A stretch of 47,183 bases of DNA from Deltaproteobacteria bacterium (GCA_030698575.1 JAUYMQ010000648.1:1-47183), one strand, 5' to 3'. Counted from the first letter of the stretch, positions 1 to 47,183 are shown. Program-made: numbers and translations. The notes: generated by a model from the sequence alone, not told the origin.

Positions 1-141
1 CGATGAGCGCCCGGAGGCCTTCGGCTCGTGAATCGAGCGCGGCCTGTTGCTCCCCGCCACCCCGGGTCAGCCGCTCGGTTTTTCGCTCGGCCTGTCGCAC
101 ACGGTCGCCCGCGGCATGCGCGTTGGCGCGAGCGCGGTCGA
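1..141. repeat. Exact 141-bp terminal overlap with 47043..47183 (circular closure of the contig)
   Basis: Bases 1-141 (cgatgagcgcccggaggcc...gcgagcgcggtcga) recur identically at 47043-47183. The block lies inside a minus-strand CDS that closes in frame across the junction. Confidence 0.95.
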
Positions 142-2312: not shown

Positions 2313-2537
2313 TCACCAGATCCAGACTATTTGCGAGCTCCGCGCCAGTAGATCGCGGAGTTTATCGATTTCCGCGCGCTGCTCGCGCACGACCTCGCTG
2401 GCGTGCCGGCACTGCGTGGTTTCTAGCCACGATCCTCCCACCAACACAGCTACTCGACCGCACCGGTAGCCCACTACCGTCACTGTGCTGTCGAGAATTT
2501 CCGCCTCACAGATCGGGCACTTATCCAGCGCATGCAC
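2313..2537 (-). CDS. Small zinc-ribbon (CPxC) protein, 74 aa, first gene of the leftward operon
   Basis: GTG start at 2537. Sequence MHALDKCPICEAEILDSTVTVVGYRCGRVAVLVGGSWLETTQC... followed by a short coiled-coil tail. Confidence 0.6.
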   Translation of the reverse strand: MHALDKCPICEAEILDSTVTVVGYRCGRVAVLVGGSWLETTQCRHASEVVREQRAEIDKLRDLLARSSQIVWIW

Positions 2538-2558
2538 GTTCGTTCACCATTGCTCACT

Positions 2559-2575
2559 TGTGCAGCGGCTGCACA
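2559..2575. promoter_or_regulatory. 17-bp palindrome TGTGCAGCGGCTGCACA upstream of the leftward operon
   Basis: 8+1+8 perfect inverted repeat located 22-38 nt upstream of the GTG at 2537. It could be an operator or a 5'-UTR hairpin. Confidence 0.4.
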
Positions 2576-2822
2576 TCACCTACGCTCCCACCTGCCCGCT
2601 GCCCCGCAACTGCACGCCCTGCCGCGCCGTATCTCCCGCGCGCCGTAGCGAGCGGTACTGGGGTCCACGCTCCGCCACTCGCGGGGCCGGGCACGGGGCG
2701 CTGAGCCGGGCCGTGTGCTCCCTGCATGGGATCGCCCGGGGCGCCCCGCGCCGGCCTGGGCCCGCTGCGGGGGGTGCGTGGGGGGCTGGTTGTCAGGGAG
2801 CAACCGTTCAACGCCCCTATTG

Positions 2823-2873
2823 TTCCGCAACACGAAACATCCTGTCAACAGAAATGTTTCGCAGGGCGGAACA
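2823..2873. promoter_or_regulatory. Composite inverted repeat GTTCCGC-n5-GAAACAT-n13-ATGTTTC-n5-GCGGAAC (candidate operator)
   Basis: Symmetric about position 2848 in the divergent intergenic region between 2537 (-) and 2889 (+). The outer half-sites are identical to the palindrome at 5943-5959. Confidence 0.5.
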
Positions 2874-2888
2874 TGGCTGGAGGATCTT

Positions 2889-3409: not shown

Positions 3410-3892
3410 ATGCCAGTGACCGTTCCAATTCAACTCAACACGTGGAGCCAGAAGGCCGCGGGTGATCTGGTCATCTTCAATGTAGGTTACGAGAAGCGGA
3501 GCCTTCACCAACTTTGTGCCACATTGGTTGCCGCCGGGGTCGAAGTTCTGCTCGACGTGCGCGAACGGCCATGGAGCATGCGCCCGGAGTTTCGACGAGA
3601 GCGACTCCGCAAAGAGCTCGATGCCTCGGGCATTGGCTACGTGCATTGCAAGGCTGCCGGGAACCCGTATCGGCCAAAGCCGGGTGAGGTGAAGTCGTTC
3701 GACGATTGCATGAGGGATTACGAGCGCCATATCCGCGCATCTCCTGATGTTGTCGAGGAAATGTCCGGGCTTCTACGTGGTCGGCGCGCAGCGGTTTTTT
3801 GCTACGAGGCTCGCCGTGATCGGTGCCATCGCAGCGTGCTCCTTGACGCCATCGAGCGCATCGCTGGCCCTTTGACCGTCGTCGACCTATAA
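3410..3892 (+). CDS. DUF488 family protein, 160 aa
   Basis: GGAGGAAAATG ribosome-binding site. The motifs VLLDVRERPWSMRPEFRRERLRKELDASGIGYVH and AVFCYEARRDRCHRSVL match the DUF488 pattern DVR..P.S...F...L...GI.Y.H ... C.E.....CHR. Confidence 0.7.
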   Translation: MPVTVPIQLNTWSQKAAGDLVIFNVGYEKRSLHQLCATLVAAGVEVLLDVRERPWSMRPEFRRERLRKELDASGIGYVHCKAAGNPYRPKPGEVKSFDDCMRDYERHIRASPDVVEEMSGLLRGRRAAVFCYEARRDRCHRSVLLDAIERIAGPLTVVDL

Positions 3893-4708
3893 CCCGAACA
3901 TCGTCATCTGGCCGACCTTAGGCACCTTGAGCGAGTCCAATAGCATGAAGTTCGTGAGGTGGGTGCGTGATGTTCCCACGAAGAAGAAGATGTCGTATCG
4001 GGCCGTGTCGAGCTCGCGACGCATCAAGTCAATGACCTTGCCATTCAAGTTCGCGTCCCTGGCGAACTTCAGCTTCCGGTAGAGCTCGTTGAGGCCCCAG
4101 TTGTTGAGGCGCATGTCGTGTCCATTGCATCTGTTGTCATCGCAACGCCATGGAACGTGAAAGCCCATCTCCGGAAAGGCAATAGGCTTCATTTGGCCAA
4201 ACATGGCACCCTGAGCCAACAGTTCGCGTTCGATCGCTTCCCATTCGGCGCGCTCGGACTCGGGCCTGCGCTTGAGGTAGATCTTATCGAGGTTGATCGC
4301 CTTCGGCCTGACGATTGCGAGGGAGCGTTTTGGAAGCTTTCCTTTAGGACGTTCGGCTGTCATGGACTCGATGGAGTCAGCAATGCCTGGTGAACGCTCA
4401 ACATAATTTCGCCGTTCTTCGGGATCCTTAATTACCGGGCCGAGCTCGATCGAGTCGGGATGGATCCGGATGCTCTCGCTGCGTGGATCCTCAGAATGCG
4501 GCGCTGCGTCAACCGTGATCCACTGCCACGCCTTAAACCGCTTGCCTTCGTCGAGATACCGCTTTGGAACCGGGTGCAACCGCACAATTTCCTTGGTGTC
4601 CTCGCGAAGCGCTCCGGTACACGCGACTTCTCGGTACTTTCTTGAGTACCGCGGGTAGGTCGTCCCCAGCACGAGAAGGCGCGATCGGGTCCACATCTTC
4701 GGGTGCAT
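3887..4708 (-). CDS. Hypothetical protein, 273 aa, no family recognised (Cys/His cluster WRCDDNRCNGHD)
   Basis: Clean ORF with AGGAA before the ATG. The composition is protein-like and lies in the A/T-richer island. Its 3' end overlaps the DUF488 gene by 6 nt (convergent). Confidence 0.7.
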   Translation of the reverse strand: MHPKMWTRSRLLVLGTTYPRYSRKYREVACTGALREDTKEIVRLHPVPKRYLDEGKRFKAWQWITVDAAPHSEDPRSESIRIHPDSIELGPVIKDPEERRNYVERSPGIADSIESMTAERPKGKLPKRSLAIVRPKAINLDKIYLKRRPESERAEWEAIERELLAQGAMFGQMKPIAFPEMGFHVPWRCDDNRCNGHDMRLNNWGLNELYRKLKFARDANLNGKVIDLMRRELDTARYDIFFFVGTSRTHLTNFMLLDSLKVPKVGQMTMFGL

Positions 4709-5132: not shown

Positions 5133-5533
5133 GGGATCAATCCTATGCTATCGAAGGCGTTCGCATGAGCAGGCATCTTAAAGATGCATTCGTACAAGCC
5201 ACGCCGCGCGTCGGAATTCTTGATGGCCAACGTGACATAGTCAGGGTTTTCCGGAGGGTTGATATCCCAACCTTTGCTTTTGAGAAGTTCGTCCACCGAA
5301 ATTCCAGACCCAGCCATAGCACGTCGACAAGACACCATGTCCCATCCCTTTTCGCCCAGCTCCGTCAGGTCATTGTTGAGGTCGAAGTCCTCAATCGCGA
5401 CGACAGAGTACGACCATCCAGATGCGTCTGGACCCGTTTCCAGCCACGCGTGAATGACCAACGTTTTTAATAGCTCCCAAGTCACAGCGGCCAGCAAAAG
5501 AGCAATTATGACATAACCTTGCATCTTCGACAC
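5129..5533 (-). CDS. Membrane-anchored protein with a DUF4177-like domain, about 134 aa
   Basis: GTG at 5533 sits 6 nt after GGGAGG (the track starts at TTG 5539). N-terminal TM segment YVIIALLLAAVTW. WSYSVVAIEDFDLNNDLTELGEKGWDMVSC resembles the DUF4177 pattern W.Y....LN.LG..GW..V. Confidence 0.5.
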   Translation of the reverse strand: MSKMQGYVIIALLLAAVTWELLKTLVIHAWLETGPDASGWSYSVVAIEDFDLNNDLTELGEKGWDMVSCRRAMAGSGISVDELLKSKGWDINPPENPDYVTLAIKNSDARRGLYECIFKMPAHANAFDSIGLIP

Positions 5534-5535
5534 GT

Positions 5536-5913
5536 TCAACCTCCCGTTTTGTTGTGTCGACGTTGCACGACCTTGATGTGGTCCAATGCCTCGCGACGAG
5601 CATCCGGGTTGAGCCCTTCGAGGATCGTGATGGCCTCCAACGTTTCAGCATCAAGCGTCGCCTCTGGCGGATGGTGGTAGCCGAACAATTCGTACGTTGG
5701 GCATTGGAGCGCATCCGCGAGCACGTCGATGGTCTGGTGCGTCCATCCGATGTTCGAGATCTCCATTCGCGCGATGGTTGATCGGTGCATACCGGCTCGT
5801 TCAGCAAGTTGTTCCTGCGTCAACCCTCGTCGTTTCCTTGCCTCTGCCAGGCGTAGCCGCATCAACAGAGTGTCGCACATGCCGGAGCATTGCTCGATAG
5901 CGCGGCGCGGCAC
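5536..5913 (-). CDS. XRE-family HTH repressor (CI-like), 125 aa, no peptidase domain
   Basis: GTG at 5913 sits 5 nt after GAGG. MRLRLAEARKRRGLTQEQLAERAGMHRSTIARMEIS is a classic HTH_3 motif. Divergent from a Cro-like gene with a palindromic operator between them. Confidence 0.8.
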   Translation of the reverse strand: MPRRAIEQCSGMCDTLLMRLRLAEARKRRGLTQEQLAERAGMHRSTIARMEISNIGWTHQTIDVLADALQCPTYELFGYHHPPEATLDAETLEAITILEGLNPDARREALDHIKVVQRRHNKTGG

Positions 5914-5933
5914 CTTTACCTCATGGTTCTGGC

Positions 5934-5962
5934 TTGACTAACGTTCCGCGTTGCGGAACAAT
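5934..5962 (+). promoter_or_regulatory. Sigma70-like promoter TTGACT-17-AACAAT, with the palindromic operator GTTCCGCgttGCGGAAC (5943-5959) in its spacer
   Basis: The -35 is at 5934-5939 and the -10 at 5957-5962, with a 17-nt spacer. The ATG of the Cro-like gene at 5969 lies 7 nt after the -10, implying a leaderless or near-leaderless transcript. Confidence 0.5.
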
Positions 5963-5968
5963 GTCTGC

Positions 5969-6382
5969 ATGAAGCTTGCTGCGTACAAGAGACAGCACCG
6001 GTTGACCTACGAGAGGCTCGCGAAGCTGCTGGCGATGACGAAGACATCCGCCTGGCGCTACTGCCAAGGCGAGGTGCCCTCGGCAGCCGCCGCCAACCGC
6101 ATCAGTAGGGCGACGAACGGCGAGGTAACGGTAGAGGAGCTCCTCTACCCCACCGGCGTCTCGCCCGGCGCCCGCATGACCCCTCGCGATCCTATGCCCG
6201 AGCTCGAGGACGACGAGCAGCTCGAGGACGACGCCGCCGACAACCCCGCCGCCCCGGGCACCAACCCCTGCGGCCACCCGAGCACCTTGGTGCGCGGTGG
6301 CGTGACGAACTACTGCTCGGGCTGCGAGAGCGACGCCCGGGAGATGGACGCCAGCGGCGGTGCCGACGCTGCGGCGGCTTAG
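5969..6382 (+). CDS. Cro/YdaS-like HTH regulator with an acidic/Cys C-terminal extension, 137 aa
   Basis: MKLAAYKRQHRLTYERLAKLLAMTKTSAWRYCQGEVPSAAAANRISRATNGEVTVEELLYP resembles Cro/YdaS-type HTH proteins. Divergent from the XRE repressor. Confidence 0.65.
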   Translation: MKLAAYKRQHRLTYERLAKLLAMTKTSAWRYCQGEVPSAAAANRISRATNGEVTVEELLYPTGVSPGARMTPRDPMPELEDDEQLEDDAADNPAAPGTNPCGHPSTLVRGGVTNYCSGCESDAREMDASGGADAAAA

Positions 6383-6465
6383 GGCGTGGCGCGGGTGTGG
6401 GATGTGCTGCGGCCGGCCGACGCGCAGGCGAAGGCCACCGCGCAAGCGGCGTAGGAGGTGCGGCG

Positions 6466-6639
6466 ATGCGAGCCCTCGTGAGCTCGACAGTGGCATGGGG
6501 TGCAGTGGCGGTCCTCGAGGTTGCGGTGGTGGTGCTCCGTCGCGCCCGCATGCTCGGGAGCCCCTCCATATCTATTGATGCGTCACAGCATGCCGGCGCC
6601 GCCGGGCTGGCGCACGCAAAGGCGAGGGTGCCGCGGTGA
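6466..6639 (+). CDS. Small hydrophobic protein, 57 aa
   Basis: Internal ATG of track ORF 6397..6639, preceded by AGGAGGTG at 6-nt spacing. Sequence MRALVSSTVAWGAVAVLEVAVVVLRRARML... The stop overlaps the next GTG start (GTGA). Confidence 0.45.
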   Translation: MRALVSSTVAWGAVAVLEVAVVVLRRARMLGSPSISIDASQHAGAAGLAHAKARVPR

Positions 6640-7136
6640 GGAACTCGCACAGGACCCCCAGAGCAGCCCGCGTCGCGTTCTCGCGGGCTGCCGCTGCCGT
6701 GGGCTATCAGGACATCGCCGACCTGTTCGGCTGCGACCGGTCGACGGTCAGTCGCTGGTGCTCCGGCGACCTCCCCCTTTACCTCGACACGGCGGGCGCG
6801 GTTGCGCGCCATCTGCAAGGGGTGGAGTGGAGCGAGGAGGTGCGCTCGATCGGCCGCGGGCTCGCCCAGGCGATCGCCGAGGAGGCCGGCGCCACCCTGA
6901 CGGGGCCAGTCCGGCTGGACGCCGACGCGCTGTCGCGGACGGTCTCGCAGACGGCCACCGCGGTGCTCGAGCGCGCCGGCGTGCTGGTGCGGGCCGCGGT
7001 GGACGCGGAGGCCGACGGCGTGGTGACGCCGGACGAGCTGCGCACGCTGATCCGCCTAATGGCCGAGCACGTGGACTGCTGCCGCGGCCGGCTCGCGGTC
7101 CTCGAGGAGCGGCTGCGGGCCGCGTCGAGCGCATGA
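6636..7136 (+). CDS. HTH DNA-binding regulator (possibly CII/CP76-like), 166 aa
   Basis: GYQDIADLFGCDRSTVSRWCSGD is an HTH motif. The C-terminal helical region contains DGVVTPDELRTLIRLMAEH. Confidence 0.55.
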   Translation: MRNSHRTPRAARVAFSRAAAAVGYQDIADLFGCDRSTVSRWCSGDLPLYLDTAGAVARHLQGVEWSEEVRSIGRGLAQAIAEEAGATLTGPVRLDADALSRTVSQTATAVLERAGVLVRAAVDAEADGVVTPDELRTLIRLMAEHVDCCRGRLAVLEERLRAASSA

Positions 7137-7407
7137 GTTGCACGCCCGGGCGGTCCGCCGTCCGGGGTCCCACTCCCGCGGGGGCCAAGGTCGCGGGACG
7201 AGTCGCATGGGGCGACGGGAAACGTGTGAGGCAGTCGAGCACGCCGTCGCCAGGGCCGCGCCTGCATGTGGCCCGCCTCACCCGTCGAGCGCCGGACGGG
7301 CATCGACTGCAGGCGCCGGGCAGGTCGCCCGACATCCAGACCCCGGCCGGTGGGACGCCGGCCCCAGACGCGGCCCCGAACCCTTCGCGGGTAATGCGAG
7401 GGCCTAG

Positions 7408-7476
7408 CGGTGTCACGGGAGCGCCCCCCACCGCGACGTGTGCAAGAGCGCCGGGCCGGCTGAGAGGCCGGCCACC
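7408..7476 (+). repeat. Copy 1 of a ~70-nt repeat carrying the hairpin GGCCGGC-tgagag-GCCGGCC
   Basis: cggtgtcacgggagcgcccc...gccgggccggctgagaggccggccacc aligns by eye to 7616-7685 with only a few mismatches and one 1-nt indel. Confidence 0.8.
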
Positions 7477-7501
7477 GTCTACATGACGGCGCGACCGCAT
7501 C

Positions 7502-7553
7502 TGGAGGTTGCGCCGTTGAGCGCCGCGTGGAGGTTGCGCCGTTGAGCGCCGCG
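7502..7553 (+). repeat. Perfect tandem duplication, 2 x 26 bp (tggaggttgcgccgttgagcgccgcg)
   Basis: Units 7502-7527 and 7528-7553 are identical. They lie between the two 70-nt repeat copies in a non-coding tract. Confidence 0.9.
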
Positions 7554-7615
7554 GGCAGGCCGCGGGCCGAGGGCAGGCGAAGGCCCCACGCTCTCTGAGA
7601 GGGGAGCCCAGACCA

Positions 7616-7685
7616 CGGTGTCGCGGGAGCGCCCCCGCCGCCGTGACGTGTGCATGACGCCGGGCCGGCTGAGAGGCCGGCCACC
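7616..7685 (+). repeat. Copy 2 of the ~70-nt hairpin-containing repeat
   Basis: cggtgtcgcgggagcgcccccgccgccgtgacgtgtgcatgacgccgggccggctgagaggccggccacc. Confidence 0.8.
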
Positions 7686-8005
7686 AGATCCCCTGCGGGG
7701 GTGGGCAATGACGGGCCGCCGAAAGCCGCCGATGTGGCGATCCACGGTTCTGAGCCCTAACCCGGCCGACCTGCGGCGGCGGAACCGCGGGAGCCGCTCA
7801 CGGGCGAAACTGTGAGCCCACCCCAGGGACACGGGGACGGCGAGGGGGCACGCCGCGACGCCGGCGACGGCGCGGAACCGGGACATAGTGGGTGCCCGGG
7901 CCCCTTTTCGCAGCGGCCTGCCGCTGGTGCTACAGGGCTGCCGGGCACCCTTGATGCACGAAAGACACGGTAGACAGGACGCGCCGCGGCGCAAGGGAGA
8001 GCCCG

Positions 8006-8650
8006 ATGTTCCACGAACAGACAAGACGCTGTGAGCTAACAAAGCTGACGTTCAAGCGGCAGGGGTCCGACGTACTAGCGGACCTGACACTGCGCGTGCT
8101 CCTCCACTGGCAGGAGTCTTTCCGCCTCGGCATCGACACCAACGAGTTCGCCGAGCGGTACGAAAAGGCGTCGCTACGGACTAACCTCGGCTGGTACGAC
8201 CTTGACGTCGATCCGTGCGGCCTCCACCCGCTGAAGCTGCGGGAGCGGTCGCTGGACAAGCCTCAGGTGGACATCGAACTGCCGGCCGCCGCGCGAAGCC
8301 GCCGCAAGAAGCTCGAGGATCTCCTCCCCGGTTTGGGTGCGCAGTCGGCGCTGGTGTGGCTCACCTTCACGGTGGGCGCACCGTTGATCGGCGATTGTCG
8401 CCATCAGGTATGGGCCCTCTTGCGGGCTCTCGGCGAGGTCGTCGACGTGAAGTTCTGGGCCCTGGGTCGCGGCCGCGCGGAGGGCGAGCAGCTCGACGTT
8501 GATGGCGCGATCGTTAAACACACTGAACGCACCGGAGGCCCTGCCCCAGCGGGTGATTTACCCGCCGCAGCGCGCAACGGCGACGGCCGCGTTGCCGACA
8601 CCGCCGACACCGCCGACACCGCCGACACCGAGCAACCATCGCTCAACTGA
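8006..8650 (+). CDS. Hypothetical protein, 214 aa
   Basis: GGGAGAG precedes the ATG and the composition is protein-like. The C-terminal (ADT)x4 is encoded by 4 x gccgacacc at 8594-8629. Confidence 0.6.
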   Translation: MFHEQTRRCELTKLTFKRQGSDVLADLTLRVLLHWQESFRLGIDTNEFAERYEKASLRTNLGWYDLDVDPCGLHPLKLRERSLDKPQVDIELPAAARSRRKKLEDLLPGLGAQSALVWLTFTVGAPLIGDCRHQVWALLRALGEVVDVKFWALGRGRAEGEQLDVDGAIVKHTERTGGPAPAGDLPAAARNGDGRVADTADTADTADTEQPSLN

Positions 8651-8663
8651 CGGGGAGGGTACG

Positions 8664-9170
8664 ATGCGCGAGCTCGCCGACGTCACGCTCCGCCTGCCCA
8701 TCGCGCCCGCGGCCAAGGGCAGGCCCAAGGCGCGAGTGCTGCAGCTTGGGGCGCGGACCATCGCTCAGATGTACACCCCGGCGACCACCCGCGCCTTCGA
8801 GGCGACCATCGCCGACATGGCCGCTGCGCGCCTGGAAGGCCGCATCTTGGAGGGCCCGCTCCGCGTCGACATCCTCGCGGTGCTCCAGCGCCCGCAAGGG
8901 CTCCTCCGCAAGCGGGACCCGGAGGGCATCACCTGGGCCCCGAAGCGTCCGGACCGCGACAACCTGGAGAAGGCGGTGCTCGACGGGCTTTCTGCTTGCT
9001 TCCGGGACGACGCTCAGGTCGTCGCCGGCGAGACCATCAAGGTCTACGCCGAGAAGACTGGCTGCCCCCGCGTGGTCGTGCGCATCCGTCAGCTCGGAGA
9101 GCAAGACCTGCTCGCCGCCGCCAACCCCGAGGCGCTCGCCGCGTCACTCGGGCTGCTCGTGGAGGGGTGA
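8664..9170 (+). CDS. rusA: RusA-family Holliday junction resolvase, 168 aa
   Basis: Internal ATG at 8664 follows GGGGAGGG. PIAPAAKGRPKARV...MYTPATTRAFE...KRPDRDNLEKAVLDGLSACFRDDAQVV matches the RusA motifs (P..K.R., DxDN..K...D.....DD.QV). Confidence 0.8.
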   Translation: MRELADVTLRLPIAPAAKGRPKARVLQLGARTIAQMYTPATTRAFEATIADMAAARLEGRILEGPLRVDILAVLQRPQGLLRKRDPEGITWAPKRPDRDNLEKAVLDGLSACFRDDAQVVAGETIKVYAEKTGCPRVVVRIRQLGEQDLLAAANPEALAASLGLLVEG

Positions 9171-9171
9171 C

Positions 9172-10497
9172 GTGGCGGAGATCACCTACACCGTAGCTCC
9201 CGCTCGGGAGTCCTCCACCCGCAAGTTCGCCAAGCTCAGCCGGGATGCCCGGCTTGCCATCAAGTGCCTGCGGGACCAGGTGGATCGATGGGGCTGCGTC
9301 ACGGCGGACCCCTGGGAGATCCAGGGGATGTGCCTCCGAGACTATTCGGAGGAGGAGATAGGGGCGTGTCTGAGTGAGGCTGCGGGGGCGGGGCTCATCG
9401 TGTTGTATGAGGCCGGTGGAGCACCGTGGGCGTGGTTCCCCGACCACGACAGCATGCACGACGGCTCGTATCTGCGCACCAAGCGCGGCCGCCCAACGCT
9501 CCCGCTGCCCCCCTGTCACCCGACGCTCGCGCAGGAGACGAGTACTCCGGAGCAGGTCCAGAGCACTCCGGAGCAGGTCCAGAGTACTCCGGAGCAGGTC
9601 CAGAGCACTCCGGAGCAGGTCCAGAGCACTCCGGAGCAGGTCCAGAGTACTCCGGAGCAGGTCCAGAGTACTCCGGAGCAGGTCCAGAGCACTCCGGAGC
9701 AGGTCCAGAGTACTCCGGAGAACTCCTCACGCGCGCGACGCGCGGACCTCGACCTCGACCTTGACCTCGACCTCGACCTTGACCGCGACCAGACAGGGGC
9801 GGAGGCGGCGCAGGGATCTAGCTACGCGCGCACGCGCGAGGCCGGGCCGCCGCCGCCGACTGCCGACGGTTATGCCGGTTCTGCGTCTCGCTCGTCGGAG
9901 CCGTCATTGCCCGAGCCCGAGCCCGAGCCCAAGCTCGCCGCGGCTCCGGTGTCTGCCGGCCGGGGCAACCCCGGGGCTACCCCGGGCTCTACCCCGGGCT
10001 CTACCCCGGGGCAACCCCGGGGTGACCCTGCGCTGGACTGCCTGTGGCCCAGCTTCCTCGCCGGGGCGGAGCTGCTCCAACGCGGGGGGCACCCGTGCGA
10101 GATGGGGTCGGTGGCCCGGGAGGCATGGGAACGCACGGTTCGGGCCTTCCCGCAGCTCGACCACGAGACCGCCATCGCCGAGTGGGTCGCGCACTGGTCA
10201 GGACCGAGGGCGAAGAAGCGCTACGGCCCGGTGCTGGATGCGGTGGCGAGCTATCACCAGGCCTGCGACCTTGCGCTGAGGAAGCAACTCGAGCAGGAGG
10301 CACGGCAACGTGAACGGGACAAGCATGTGGGCGCGCAAGCCGGAGACGCGAAGTCTGGCGGACATATTGGCGTCGCTGCCAACAAGCACTACGACGAGGC
10401 AGCGTTCGCCCGAGAGCGAGATCGACGCAAACAAAACGTGGGCGTGTCCGGCGCACGGAAACGTGTGCCGACTCCTGCGGAAACCGGAGGGATATGA
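9172..10497 (+). CDS. Replication initiator/organiser-like protein with a repeat-rich central linker, 441 aa
   Basis: GTG at 9172 sits 5 nt after GGAGGGG. Its position is upstream of a DnaC-like loader. The N- and C-terminal parts look globular, and the centre encodes (STPEQVQ)x8, (DL)n, (PE)n and (TPGS)n. Confidence 0.5.
   Translation: MAEITYTVAPARESSTRKFAKLSRDARLAIKCLRDQVDRWGCVTADPWEIQGMCLRDYSEEEIGACLSEAAGAGLIVLYEAGGAPWAWFPDHDSMHDGSYLRTKRGRPTLPLPPCHPTLAQETSTPEQVQSTPEQVQSTPEQVQSTPEQVQSTPEQVQSTPEQVQSTPEQVQSTPEQVQSTPENSSRARRADLDLDLDLDLDLDRDQTGAEAAQGSSYARTREAGPPPPTADGYAGSASRSSEPSLPEPEPEPKLAAAPVSAGRGNPGATPGSTPGSTPGQPRGDPALDCLWPSFLAGAELLQRGGHPCEMGSVAREAWERTVRAFPQLDHETAIAEWVAHWSGPRAKKRYGPVLDAVASYHQACDLALRKQLEQEARQRERDKHVGAQAGDAKSGGHIGVAANKHYDEAAFARERDRRKQNVGVSGARKRVPTPAETGGI
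9541..9720 (+). repeat. Tandem 21-bp repeats ag(t/c)actccggagcaggtccag, 8 full units plus a 12-nt partial unit (iteron-like, candidate ori)
   Basis: Units start at 9541, 9562, 9583, 9604, 9625, 9646, 9667, 9688 and 9709. Each contains the 8-bp palindrome CTCCGGAG. They are in frame within the initiator-like CDS. Confidence 0.9.
9745..9792 (+). repeat. Hexamer tandem repeat (gacctc/gacctt)n
   Basis: gacctcgacctcgaccttgacctcgacctcgaccttgaccgcgacc encodes DLDLDLDLDLDLDRD. Confidence 0.85.
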
Positions 10498-40203: not shown

Positions 40204-41397
40204 CTAGTCGTCATCCTTGCCACCCATTACCGTCAGCCGAGCTCCCTGGAGAGCCCGCCGAAGGTGCGCCCCAATCGCTTGCGTCGCCGGGTCCGACTGC
40301 CCCGGAAGCGCGTGCCGATAGACGCGGCTCGCCGTTCGCTCGTCCTCGTGCCCGAGCAGGCTCGCCAGCGCGCGCAGGTCGCCGCCGGCCAGTGTCGCAG
40401 CGGTGTGCCGCAGGCCGTACGGCGAGACGTATGGAACTCCGGCCAGCTCCGACGTGGCGCGGATGCGTCGCCGTAGCGGCTTGGCGTCGCAGGCCTGGCT
40501 CTCGTGCCTCCGCCCGAGCGGGAACAACAGGCCCGCACCGCCGGCCTCAGCGTCGCGCCGGTTGACCCACGCGCGTACCACCTCGAGGCACGTGTCATCC
40601 GCGATCGTGAATGCACGCACCGCGCGGCGCGACTTCACCCGCTCGCCTTCGCGCGGGCGCACGTAGACCACGCCGCGCATGGCGTCCACATCCGCGACGC
40701 GCAGGCGCAGCGCTTCTCCCGGCCTCGGTGCGTGGCAGAGCACGATGGCGAGCGCTGGCCACTCGGGCCACCGCTTCTCGAGCTTGAACACGGCCCGAAA
40801 CCAGCGGTCGAGTTGGTGCGGGTGTAACCACTCGCGCCCGTGCTCCCCCTCCGGGCGTTTGATGTCCGCCCACGTCACGGACGGTGCATGGCCGCAAGCC
40901 ACAAGATGTCTCTGCATCGCTGTAACCGCGTCGAGCTCCGCCGCTACGGTGCGCTGCGAGATCTTGGAGCCCGTGCGCGAGCCGTCCATCTTGAGCCTGG
41001 CGTCTCTGTAATCAATGCCCTGCTCGCGCGTAATGCGCAGAGGGCACGGCTCGCCCAGGAGCCTACCGACCGCACTGAAGCGATCCCGGTAGGTCGTCAG
41101 GCCACTCTCGGCGTCGCCCTCGTCCTTGCGCCATGCCAAAAATTCGGCCACTGCCTCGGTCCATGTGGTCGGTGCCGTCAGCCGTCCCGCGAGGAGCTCC
41201 TCTGCGATGCGCCTTGCCGCGGCTTCTGCCTGCTTTTGTGTGGTGGCGATCGGAAGAGGGATCTCGCGCGTGCGAGGGCGTCCTCTGTCACTGTCCCAGG
41301 TGGTAGTGACGACGATCCATCTGTGGGTGACGTCGCCGTCCCACTTGTTGCGCCGCCAGCTTGCGACGGCGCGGTCTCCTGTGTACTTCCGGCCCAT
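40204..41397 (-). CDS. int: Tyrosine recombinase (phage integrase), 397 aa
   Basis: ATG at 41397 follows GGAGG. Catalytic-type motifs are GEALRLRVADVD, YGLRHTAATLAG and LLGHEDERTASRVYRH. The first 181 codons of track ORF 40204..41940 are an Arg-rich non-coding-looking extension. Confidence 0.9.
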   Translation of the reverse strand: MGRKYTGDRAVASWRRNKWDGDVTHRWIVVTTTWDSDRGRPRTREIPLPIATTQKQAEAAARRIAEELLAGRLTAPTTWTEAVAEFLAWRKDEGDAESGLTTYRDRFSAVGRLLGEPCPLRITREQGIDYRDARLKMDGSRTGSKISQRTVAAELDAVTAMQRHLVACGHAPSVTWADIKRPEGEHGREWLHPHQLDRWFRAVFKLEKRWPEWPALAIVLCHAPRPGEALRLRVADVDAMRGVVYVRPREGERVKSRRAVRAFTIADDTCLEVVRAWVNRRDAEAGGAGLLFPLGRRHESQACDAKPLRRRIRATSELAGVPYVSPYGLRHTAATLAGGDLRALASLLGHEDERTASRVYRHALPGQSDPATQAIGAHLRRALQGARLTVMGGKDDD

Positions 41398-41609
41398 TGG
41401 GTACCTCCAGCCCCGGACCGGCGTCTCGGTGCCGGAGGCAATGATGCGCCGTCGTCCGTCACCTCCGCAAGGGCCCTTTCGGCCTCGGCAAGCTCGGCTT
41501 CCACGGCGGCGCGGGCCGCTCGCAGCTCCCCAACTCGGCGGAAAAGGTAGGCACGGGCTGTGGTGGGCATGCCGGCGGGCTCCGAAGCGTCGCGATCGTC
41601 GCCCATCAT
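41178..41609 (-). CDS. Possible small coiled-coil ORF coupled to the upstream gene (uncertain)
   Basis: ATGATG at 41609 overlaps the upstream TGA. MMGDDRDASEPAGMPTTARAYLFRRVGELRAARAAVEAELAEAERALAEV looks real, but the frame stays open 220 nt into the integrase CDS. Confidence 0.2.
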   Translation of the reverse strand: MMGDDRDASEPAGMPTTARAYLFRRVGELRAARAAVEAELAEAERALAEVTDDGASLPPAPRRRSGAGGTQWAGSTQETAPSQAGGATSGTATSPTDGSSSLPPGTVTEDALARARSLFRSPPHKSRQKPRQGASQRSSSRDG

Positions 41610-42568
41610 GCCGCGGCCGGCTCCTGGGCGAGCTGCTCGATCGCCGCCCGCTCCTCGTCTGTTGCCGGGCGACCCGCGATGATGTCGCCGATTCGTCGCA
41701 ACGGGATGCTCGTCTCCTCCGCAAGCCGCCTGTTGGTCCACCCCGTGTCGACCAACGCCTGAAGCTGGCGCGGCAGGCCCGCCGCGCGGTACGGCTTTGG
41801 GGCAGCGAAGCGATCTGAACGCCCAGTCGTGGCGGGCTTCTGCGAGGGGCTCGCCACGGCTGGCTTCCGCGCGGGGGAATCAGTAGGTGGCGGCTCAGGC
41901 TCGACGGGTGTCGGATCTGACGGCGGACCGGCCGAGCCATCCGGCGCTGTTGAGTGGCTGCCGTTGCCGCCGCATTTCAGCACGTGGCGCCAGAGCTGCG
42001 CACAGCTAAAGGCGCTGTGGCACCGAGGGCACTCCTCGTTGGTAGGTGCCCGCGCCGCATCGAGGCTGCGAAGCTGCCCGACGTGCGGGAACGGCGGCAC
42101 ATCGACCGGCTGTTTTGCCGCACGCGCTCGAGCTCCATACTTCTTCAGAGTTTTATCGACGGCGTCGCTGCCACCGCCAAGCTCCGCCGCGATTTCCGGC
42201 GTTGCCCTGCCGGCCTCGACAAGGTCAGCGATCGCGTCGAGGCGCTTCTGGTTGCGCCACTTGGCCGTTGGGTTGACGCTGCGAGCGACCTTTTGCTTAG
42301 ACTGACTGCGCTTCGCCGGCGCCGGAGGCTCCGCCGGCGCCTGAGGCTTCTTCGGTCGCTGCGGCGCTGGCTGGGGTTGCGCCGAAGATGCGGAGGCATC
42401 GAGCGCAGGCTGCACGCCGGTGCCAACTATCCACGCATCGACCTCTTCACGCAGGGCAATTGCCAGGGTGGCGCGGATGAGGGCATCAAGCTCGACGATC
42501 GTCGCAGCCGCCTGGTCCCGAAGGGCGGTGATCAGCGGCTCGTGTAGTTTGGTTTGGGTCTTAGGCAT
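41606..42568 (-). CDS. Multi-domain DNA-binding protein (RHH-like N-terminus, two HTH segments, CPRC...H...C zinc finger), 320 aa
   Basis: KLHEPLITALRDQAAATIVELDALIRATLAIAL is RHH-like. ATPEIAAELGGGSDAVDKTLKKYG and TNRRLAEETSIPLRRIGDIIAG are HTH-like. Confidence 0.55.
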   Translation of the reverse strand: MPKTQTKLHEPLITALRDQAAATIVELDALIRATLAIALREEVDAWIVGTGVQPALDASASSAQPQPAPQRPKKPQAPAEPPAPAKRSQSKQKVARSVNPTAKWRNQKRLDAIADLVEAGRATPEIAAELGGGSDAVDKTLKKYGARARAAKQPVDVPPFPHVGQLRSLDAARAPTNEECPRCHSAFSCAQLWRHVLKCGGNGSHSTAPDGSAGPPSDPTPVEPEPPPTDSPARKPAVASPSQKPATTGRSDRFAAPKPYRAAGLPRQLQALVDTGWTNRRLAEETSIPLRRIGDIIAGRPATDEERAAIEQLAQEPAAA

Positions 42569-46260: not shown

Positions 46261-47183
46261 CTACACCGCCAGCCGGCGCTGCTCGATGTCCACCACCACC
46301 GCGCCGGGGCCCCACCCTGTGGGGTCGACGGCGAACACGAGCACCTGGTCGAGGTGGCCCCCGTCCACGAGCCAGCGCGCCAGGCGCCAGAAAGTGGCTC
46401 GGTTCTCCGCGTCGAGGGCCTCACCACCGTCCAGCACCACCACCCGGCAGGGCGACTGCGCCAAACGGTGGAGCGTGGCACTCAACATGATCATCGCCAT
46501 CGCGAAGTGCCCCGCGCTGAGGCTGGACAGCGGAGCGAAACCGCGGACCGTCTCATAGCCGAGCCCGAAGCGGGCGCCGAAACGCGCCGTGAAGGTGCCG
46601 ATGTTGACGCCGTACTTCTTCGCGAGCTTGTCCATCGGTCGCGTGATCGGGGCCACGAGCCCCTCGAGCACCTCGCGCTCGAGGCCGTGGGCCGCCGCCG
46701 CCACGGACCTCCAGATATCCCCCCACGCCTGGGCACGCAGCCGCTTGCACTGCGCGTCTGCCTTGCGCTGCGCGTCCTCGTCCGCCAGCGCCCGCTGCGC
46801 CTGAGCGGAGTGGTAGGCCTCAGATGCCTCCTTCGCCGCGCGCTTGGCGTGCTCGCTCTGCTCCTCGGCTGCCAGCAGACGGCGTGCGACCTCCGCGGGC
46901 TCGGGCGGTCTGCCGGTGTCGTCGGCTGAGGTGGCGACGAGGGCGCGCTTCGCCGCCGCGAGCTGAGCATCCGCAGCCTCGAGCTGCTCGAGAGCCTCAC
47001 ACCGTCGGGTGGCTACCGCATCGAGCTGCTCGGCGAGCTCGGCGATGAGCGCCCGGAGGCCTTCGGCTCGTGAATCGAGCGCGGCCTGTTGCTCCCCGCC
47101 ACCCCGGGTCAGCCGCTCGGTTTTTCGCTCGGCCTGTCGCACACGGTCGCCCGCGGCATGCGCGTTGGCGCGAGCGCGGTCGA
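46261..47183 (-). CDS. Rad50/SbcC-like ATPase, C-terminal coiled coil plus head (same gene as 1..1663)
   Basis: Track ORF 46261..47142. It has the signature-like LSAGHFAMAMIMLSATL and the Walker B/D-loop VVVLDGGEALD. The frame stays open to the window end and continues at position 142 after removal of the 141-bp overlap. Confidence 0.85.
   Translation of the reverse strand, partial: DRARANAHAAGDRVRQAERKTERLTRGGGEQQAALDSRAEGLRALIAELAEQLDAVATRRCEALEQLEAADAQLAAAKRALVATSADDTGRPPEPAEVARRLLAAEEQSEHAKRAAKEASEAYHSAQAQRALADEDAQRKADAQCKRLRAQAWGDIWRSVAAAAHGLEREVLEGLVAPITRPMDKLAKKYGVNIGTFTARFGARFGLGYETVRGFAPLSSLSAGHFAMAMIMLSATLHRLAQSPCRVVVLDGGEALDAENRATFWRLARWLVDGGHLDQVLVFAVDPTGWGPGAVVVDIEQRRLAV
47043..47183. 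repeat. Second copy of the 141-bp terminal overlap
   Basis: Identical to bases 1-141. Confidence 0.95.

Follow-up and report, generated by a model that had tools for sequence, protein, structure and literature searches.

A non-coding tract with repeated hairpins between the CII-like regulator gene and the replication genes of a phage-like genome

A compact phage genome raises a simple question when it carries, between an early regulatory gene and its replication genes, several hundred nucleotides (nt) of DNA in which no gene can be read: what, if anything, is the DNA for? The question is posed here by positions 7137-8005 (+ strand; 869 nt, from the stop codon of a CII-like regulator gene to the start of an open reading frame (ORF), orf8006) of a 47,183-nt stretch of DNA from a Deltaproteobacteria bacterium (GCA_030698575.1, JAUYMQ010000648.1:1-47183). 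The whole stretch is referred to below as the window and the 869-nt segment as the tract. An earlier, sequence-only reading of the window had singled out the tract and listed its repeats and stems, and all of the listed elements were found at the coordinates it gave, with the exception of the pairing of one proposed second stem. The placement of the tract between early regulators and replication genes also holds, with the CII-like gene (6636-7136) before it and recombination and replication genes after it. The tract is tentatively read here as an untranslated spacer of the rightward early transcript that bears cis-acting RNA hairpins. This reading is favored because the same loops recur in sense orientation on different stems, G.U pairs confer a strand bias on the hairpins, the local folds are robust, the duplicated copies have diverged unevenly, and the genome is otherwise compact.

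Non-coding status of the tract

The tract is the largest gap in the genome, the other gaps being mostly shorter than 70 nt in a crude gene map. Its GC content is 75%, compared with approximately 67% for the genome, every 100-nt segment is at least 69% GC, and G exceeds C on the + strand. The earlier statement that the tract lacks a credible ORF is borne out by five independent tests, i.e., codon-position GC, codon log-odds, 3-base periodicity, protein search, and gene calling, all of which agree. Briefly, GC is flat across codon positions, and no ORF displays the GC1/GC2/GC3 pattern of real genes. The codon log-odds score, trained on 31 confident genes, is at most 0.15 in all six frames of the tract, compared with an in-frame mean of 0.40 for real genes, and the power of the 3-base periodicity is 0-3, compared with 19-23 for the flanking genes. 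The concatenated six-frame translation of the tract has no match among 5.8 billion proteins, in a database that includes the annotated proteins of the contig itself, and the independent gene caller of Logan leaves the identical gap, given as 870 nt. A coding or decayed gene is thus ruled out by codon-position GC, log-odds, periodicity, and protein search. Furthermore, a second assembly of the same sample (Logan, SRR13727534) is base-for-base 100% identical across the tract, and the repeats described below are therefore not the artefact of one assembler.

Duplicated modules and a shared hairpin loop

The tract contains two modules of approximately 72 nt, which are directly repeated with a spacing of 209 bp and have 139 bp between them. 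Copy 1 (7404-7480, +) and copy 2 (7612-7689, +) are 90% identical, and the alignment of 7408-7476 with 7616-7685 includes four mismatches and two gaps, in line with the earlier judgment by eye that two copies of approximately 70 nt differ at few positions. The differences are unevenly distributed, with seven in the 44 nt of the 5′ part and none in the 28 nt of the 3′ part (Fisher p = 0.038), and the 28-nt 3′ block is identical in both copies (7449-7476 and 7658-7685). A 21-nt core pattern matches the window twice, compared with 0.01 matches expected, and a covariance model of the module, which assigns 98 bits to copy 1 and 103.6 bits to copy 2, finds only these two copies in the window. Both copies end in GGCCGGC-TGAGAG-GCCGGCC, as had been noticed earlier. 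This sequence is predicted to form the P3 hairpin (GGCCGGCU-GAGA-GGCCGGCC; 7454-7473 in copy 1 and the same at 7663-7682 in copy 2, both +) with a pairing probability of 0.99. The P1 helix is predicted between GCGGUG and CACCGC (7407-7412/7429-7434) in copy 1 and between CACGGUG and CGCCGUG (7614-7620/7639-7645) in copy 2, with a pairing probability of 0.91-0.97 in local folding, and copy 1 additionally comprises a weak middle hairpin and copy 2 an inner helix (7623-7627/7634-7638). The P1 helices of the two copies differ by one compensatory change of a G-C to an A-U pair and by one change of a U-A to a U-G pair. The second stem that had been proposed earlier (GTCACGG/CCGCGAC in copy 1 and GTCGCGG/CCGTGAC in copy 2) has a pairing probability of approximately 0 and includes an A.C mismatch in copy 1, and P1 is favored instead. 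The modules fold better than shuffled sequences on the + strand (z scores of -0.9 and -2.0) and not on the - strand (+0.3 and -0.3).

A third hairpin, GCTCTC-TGAGAG-GGGAGC (7590-7607, +), is newly added to the earlier description; its stem is unlike that of P3 and its loop is the same. The three hairpins at 7454-7473, 7590-7607, and 7663-7682 all present U-GAGA-G, i.e., a GNRA tetraloop with a U.G closing pair, and this reading of the loop holds on the sense strand only, the opposite strand offering nothing recognizable. Hairpins with a TGAGAG loop and a stem of at least 6 bp occur three times on both strands of the whole window, and all three are on the + strand and in the tract; the third is confined to the + strand because a U.G pair is required. 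The sequence common to the third hairpin and the modules is limited to the 8-mer CTGAGAGG. A decayed third module was considered at this position and rejected, since the flanks of the hairpin are without similarity to the modules.

Strand bias is also observed among hairpins of the tract with a stem of at least 6 bp and a 6-nt loop, which number six on the + strand and three on the - strand, compared with 2.6 expected; G.U pairs are required by four of the six. Further local folds are predicted along the tract. The hairpin CCCGGGCG-GTCCGC-CGTCCGGG (7145-7166, +), located 8 nt past the CII-like stop codon, has one G.U pair and no U-tract, and the hairpin GCTCACGG-GCGAAA-CTGTGAGC (7796-7817, +) is specific to the + strand because a G.U pair is needed. 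The long-range stem that had been proposed just upstream of the next gene is present as a 61-nt irregular hairpin (7890-7950), the 10-bp outer stem of which (GGGTGCCCGG/CCGGGCACCC) encloses CAGCGG-CCTG-CCGCTG; it ends 45 nt before the ribosome-binding site of orf8006, and its folding z score is -2.9 on the + strand and -3.9 on the - strand.

The perfect tandem repeat reported earlier between the two copies is exact at 7502-7553 (+), where the 26-bp unit TGGAGGTTGCGCCGTTGAGCGCCGCG occurs twice (Tandem Repeats Finder, 100%, score 104). It overlaps a 12-bp hairpin or imperfect inverted repeat with two G.U pairs, GACGGCGCGACC / GGTTGCGCCGTT (7485-7517, +), the right arm of which is the start of tandem unit 1 and the half-site centers of which are 21 bp apart. 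A weak, older match links 7281-7324 to 7538-7577 (p approximately 0.03). Tandem duplication of the whole 209-nt unit was considered and rejected, as the similarity stops at the 70 nt. As a separate observation, each 26-nt unit carries GGAGG-N8-TTG, such that two overlapping mini-ORFs of 9 and 18 codons (7516-7545 and 7542-7598, +) can be read as the peptides MSAAWRLRR and MSAAGRPRAEGRRRPHAL, the second of which has its stop codon, TGA, within the third hairpin's loop. These mini-ORFs are probably due to chance, with a leader peptide as the other possible reading.

Proposed cis-acting hairpins and competing readings

Signals for starting or ending a transcript were searched for in and around the tract. 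The tract contains no early-type phage promoter (TTGAC[A/T]-17/18-AACAAT) and no sigma-54 site, and no canonical terminator, i.e., a G-C-rich hairpin followed by a U-tract, is present in 5400-8700; the tract hairpins are followed by ACCG, CCAG, and ACCA. A Rho loading site is a poor candidate because G exceeds C in nearly every 100-nt segment of the + strand, as judged by inspection. Because the flanking genes are all on the + strand and internal promoter and terminator signals are lacking, the tract is most simply placed within the transcript of the PR-like promoter (TTGACT-17-AACAAT; 5934-5962, +), the likely source of transcripts crossing it. Such a transcript would run through the cro-like gene, orf57, the CII-like gene, the tract, orf8006, and the RusA, initiator, and DnaC-like genes, and the nascent sense RNA would fold locally into successive stable hairpins. 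The same U-GAGA-G loop would be presented by three of these hairpins, two of them at the 3′ ends of the duplicated modules, and the identical loops may be sites at which a single factor, an RNA-binding protein or the elongating polymerase itself, is repeatedly recruited. Such recruitment may control elongation, processing, or decay at the tract and would thereby determine how much, and when, the downstream recombination and replication genes are expressed relative to cro and cII.

Known RNA families offer no match. In Rfam 15, the window has no match at gathering thresholds, the best sub-threshold scores being 13-15 bits against thresholds of 47-153, and no family matches the tract even at E ≤ 10, which agrees with the earlier failure to place the tract in a known family by eye; tRNA and tmRNA genes are likewise absent from the tract. 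In blastn searches against phage records and plasmid records, the tract has no homologue, and searches with exact and degenerate module patterns in IMG/VR, JGI metagenomes, and GTDB genomes were empty or returned unrelated sequences. The exact 21-mer hairpin is matched in five GTDB genomes and one IMG/VR record, all with unrelated flanks, and these matches are generic G-C hairpins. No close relatives of the CII-like protein, orf8006, or the large terminase are present in IMG/VR, and profile scans of IMG/VR and JGI for protein relatives returned none. The hairpin tract is thus unique, its content not having been seen in any database searched.

Several results weigh against cis-acting hairpins. 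No homologue of the tract or module exists in any collection searched, and the DNA upstream of orf8006 relatives is quite different from the tract or there is no gap at all. The single compensatory pair of P1 is not significant, since 248 of 500 shuffles reach it. After removal of copy 2, two independent hairpins with a common 6-nt loop arise in 0.47% of dinucleotide shuffles, a frequency computed after the pattern had been noticed. The folding z score of the whole tract (-2.0 on the + strand and -1.6 on the - strand) lies inside the range, down to -5.4, of 12 control segments of 869 nt from the same genome, and the sliding-window z scores are ordinary for the genome except for mild values at 7360-7600 (+). 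Finally, no candidate loop-binding protein was identified, and the exact 26-bp and 90% duplications would also be expected from slippage in unconstrained DNA. If the hairpins are functional, they would provide a first look at early-gene timing in a phage of Myxococcota-like hosts, in the phages of which gene control is almost unstudied, and would represent an element unrelated to any of the enterobacterial paradigms. Otherwise, the tract would be rare ballast DNA, amounting to approximately 2% of an otherwise compact phage genome. The orphan status of the tract renders its immediate value modest.

The hairpins may be functionally analogous to boxB/nut, put, repetitive extragenic palindromic (REP)-type stabilizers, or RNase III sites, while belonging to none of these classes. 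As in lambda-type nut sites, multiple predicted sense-strand hairpins with a GNRA-type loop occur in the early operon, at the divide between early regulators and delayed-early genes. By contrast, the tract stems are G-C stems of 7-8 bp, compared with 5 bp in boxB, the loop, closed by a U.G pair, reads as a true GAGA tetraloop rather than the boxB pentaloop, and all of the tract copies are in one operon. Inspection of the sequence 5′ of the tract hairpins revealed no boxA (CGCTCTTTA-like), the sole CGCTCTT lying in copy 1 on the other strand and having no counterpart in copy 2, and no N-like arginine-rich antiterminator was recognized among the early genes in a non-exhaustive search of Pfam and PHROGs. 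REP-type and RNase III hairpins can determine how stable the mRNA segments upstream and downstream of them are relative to each other, or how they are processed. The tract resembles REP elements and bacterial interspersed mosaic elements, as well as phage RNase III sites (e.g., those of the T7 early region), in its stable, G-C-rich intercistronic hairpins without U-tracts, and the predicted 61-nt irregular hairpin at 7890-7950 is similar in size and shape to an RNase III substrate. REP elements differ in that many copies are dispersed per genome, often as inverted pairs, whereas the tract elements are confined to one tract of the phage; a test for dispersed repeats found only the two module copies in the phage and no copies with matching flanks in GTDB genomes. 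A bolder proposal appears unlikely to us, namely that the module and the extra hairpin belong to a hitherto undescribed class of cis-acting RNA signals in phages. Their repeated U-GAGA-G loops would be recognized by RNA polymerase itself or by a factor of the phage or the host, transcription would thereby be carried through the long untranslated spacer, and the replication genes would be gated, in a myxobacterial-phage counterpart of nut and put without sequence relationship.

A functionless, fast-evolving spacer, perhaps left from illegitimate recombination at a module boundary and with repeats arising from slippage or unequal recombination, is the chief competing reading and is possible, if doubtful. 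The orphan status of the tract in the collections searched, the unrelated upstream DNA of the orf8006 relatives, and the unexceptional folding stability are all consistent with it. Moreover, the GC content of 75% is higher than the coding mean (67%) and lower than the third-position value (approximately 85%), roughly the level to which unconstrained DNA in such a genome would be expected to drift, and the nested traces of duplication (the exact 26-bp pair, the 70 nt at 90%, and the match of 7281-7324 to 7538-7577) are of the kind that such DNA would accumulate. However, the rest of the genome is tightly packed, such that 869 bp of ballast would be unusual, and neutral duplication would not predict the third hairpin with the same loop, the restriction to the sense strand, or the uneven divergence of the copies.

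Less probable is a cluster of DNA-binding sites for a CII-like activator or another phage regulator, which would drive an activator-dependent promoter, e.g., for a leftward transcript antisense to cII and cro. Copies of the 12-mer RACGGCGCRACC lie in inverted orientation at 7485-7496 and in direct orientation at 7506-7517 and 7532-7543. The upstream gene resembles the 186 CII family (PF06892, E = 2.4e-4; phrog_101, E = 5.8e-7), and each 26-bp unit contains TTGC-N4-TTGA. The inverted half-sites are 21 bp apart from center to center, equal to two helical turns; this spacing is the geometry reported for 186 CII sites and provides a lead rather than a test. Nevertheless, the 12-mer (at most two mismatches) is not enriched in the window, where 11 occurrences were found and 7.0 are expected, a recognizable -10 element is missing at a suitable distance on either strand, the Pfam match is under the curated cut-off, and the three shared-loop hairpins would be left unexplained.

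Free-standing non-coding RNA genes, either small RNAs ending at P3 or one large RNA of GOLLD/ROOL size, are improbable. The size and phage location of the tract are typical of large phage RNAs, several GNRA-type loops lie on one strand, and RNA 3′ ends could be located at the hairpins 7454-7473 and 7663-7682. However, the tract has neither an Rfam family nor a promoter-like site, the hairpins lack a U-tract, and the earlier suggestion of a large structured RNA finds no support in the whole-tract z scores, which fall within the control range given above.

Signals acting in single-stranded DNA or in a mobile element, i.e., the ends of a miniature IS200/IS605-type element at 7408-7685 or strand-specific priming signals, are very improbable. 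The arrangement of two similar, direct hairpin modules 209 bp apart around 139 bp would suit such an element, as would the one-strand specificity of the structure and the proximity of replication genes; against this, the window holds no further module copy, the 21-mer matches in GTDB (five) and IMG/VR (one) have unrelated flanks, and neither a transposase nor a phage primase was recognized in the vicinity. A second origin had been considered in the sequence-only reading, but the tract has no AT-rich stretch and no iteron array, for which at least three direct repeats of approximately 17-22 bp would be expected; its 26-bp unit occurs only twice, and a classic array (21 bp x 8.6) is located at 9540-9720. 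A partition site, also suggested then, is disfavored, as no ParA/ParB-type protein was found among the genes scanned against Pfam in a scan that was not exhaustive. A CRISPR array or solitary repeat was considered separately and rejected, since the 209-nt spacing does not fit repeats of 28-37 nt with spacers of approximately 30-40 nt and the exact 21-mer is present in no array of 185,579 species genomes (GTDB).

The put RNA consists of two long stem-loops and acts in cis on the zinc-binding domain of the RNA polymerase beta-prime subunit, suppressing termination. Antiterminator RNAs of the HK022 put type, which bind the polymerase, had been named earlier as a precedent. HK022 put RNAs have been described as two RNAs of approximately 70 nt, each early operon having one shortly after its promoter, PL or PR (PMC9378689), and the modules agree with this description in size and copy number, being two similar putative sense RNAs of approximately 70 nt with predicted stem-loops in an early transcript of a temperate phage. 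Such an identity is nonetheless the least probable of the readings, because both copies are on the + strand in tandem in one operon, where the PR-like promoter lies 1.45-1.7 kb upstream of them, rather than one at each early promoter, a search of the PL-like leader (2313-2818) with the covariance model yields no copy, the modules are predicted to fold into three hairpins and not a two-stem V shape, and the host is probably a myxobacterium and not an enterobacterium.

Phage genome and surroundings of the tract

A complete phage-like genome is contained in the window. The initial approximately 141 nt of the window (1-141) recur at its end (47043-47183), and the end-to-start junction is spanned at 100% identity by the Logan contig L009 (assembly of SRR13727534); the genome is therefore circular or terminally redundant, with a length of approximately 47.04 kb. 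No DNA match to the window exists among 50,697 phage records, and the identity of the large terminase to that of any known phage does not exceed 29%. The closest relative of one window gene is carried by a contig binned as Myxococcota, and the host of the phage is probably a myxobacterium rather than an enterobacterium. A tyrosine integrase gene (40204-41940, -) is present, and the phage is therefore temperate.

The early region follows a lambdoid gene layout. A cI-like helix-turn-helix (HTH) gene (5536-5913, -) is followed by the PR-like promoter and a cro-like HTH gene (5951-6382, +), and the 57-codon orf57 (+), the product of which is hydrophobic, lies between the cro-like gene and the CII-like HTH regulator gene (6636-7136, +). 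Beyond the phrog_101 match of the CII-like protein, its match to PF06892 is weak. Its own record was the only homologue matched, and an exact-sequence look-up of the 145-aa protein returned no record. The gene order after the tract is orf8006, RusA, replication initiator, and DnaC-like loader.

The downstream gene, orf8006 (8006-8650, +), belongs to a family with five representatives among 1.84 billion proteins, in which the conserved motifs include LIGDCRxQVW, and its start and ribosome-binding site are kept in a relative. The protein has no match in Pfam, PHROGs, PADLOC, or Protein Data Bank (PDB) sequences, and its predicted alpha/beta fold (predicted local distance difference test score, 71.6) has no Foldseek match and provides no functional clue. 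Genes of the family tend to adjoin recombination genes (RNase T-like exonuclease, RecT, and RusA). A type III toxin-antitoxin system was considered and rejected, as orf8006 lacks a PADLOC, Pfam, PDB-sequence, or Foldseek match and the repeats are 450 nt away. Because the upstream DNA of the relatives differs or is absent, the tract is not a conserved leader of orf8006. In contig L001 (1-213), at least 213 nt of non-coding DNA with 49% GC and six CCGTTAC repeats precede an orf8006 relative, and in contig L010 (5599-6000), a 402-nt non-coding region with 50% GC and nine GTGGGGA repeats follows a DUF927 primase-helicase gene; a third contig with a relative has zero gap upstream. The short repeats of L001 and L010 occur in both orientations, and these regions look like operator or origin arrays. 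Like the tract, both are non-coding, repeat-bearing, and directly upstream of an orf8006 family gene, whereas they differ from it in having approximately 50% GC and six to nine copies of a 7-8-mer, the tract having 75% GC, long hairpin modules, and no such array. Repeat-bearing non-coding DNA before the orf8006 family thus recurs, and its content is phage-specific.

Other repeats and gaps of the genome are recorded here in their own right. The direct-repeat array at 9540-9720 (21 bp x 8.6, 96% matches) lies within the replication-initiator ORF (phrog_1408) and is probably the replication origin, by analogy with lambda O; contig L009 terminates within it. Short in-frame tandem repeats also occur in early genes: the tail of orf8006 carries a 9-bp unit x 4.1 (8594-8630, ADT repeats), and the replication-initiator gene carries units of 6/18 bp and 11 bp (9745-9790 and 9960-10022). 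The second-largest non-coding gap (window 2313-2888, approximately 576 nt) is flanked by divergent genes and contains a PL-like promoter (TTGACA-18-AACAAT; 2848-2819, -), the -10 element of which is identical to that of the PR-like promoter, together with an operator-like palindrome, GTTCCGCAACACGAAACAT...ATGTTTCGCAGGGCGGAAC, at approximately 2822-2872. The leftward leader (2500-2818) is also GC-rich and has nothing in common with the tract.

Two further observations concern the region to the left of the tract. The leftward early operon encodes a stand-alone, 107-aa Csx3-domain protein (1663-1986, -; Pfam PF09620, E = 3e-22; PADLOC Csx3, E = 2e-23). Csx3 proteins are ring nucleases acting on cyclic oligoadenylate, which makes this phage-borne Csx3 a candidate inhibitor of type III CRISPR signaling. 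Furthermore, a convergent gene pair (3410-3892, +, and 3887-4708, -) matches both components of PDC-M19, with an A-like (DUF488, E = 1.2e-24) and a B-like (E = 8e-33) member, and this candidate defense system is placed to the left of the cI-like gene, in the lysogeny-side region.

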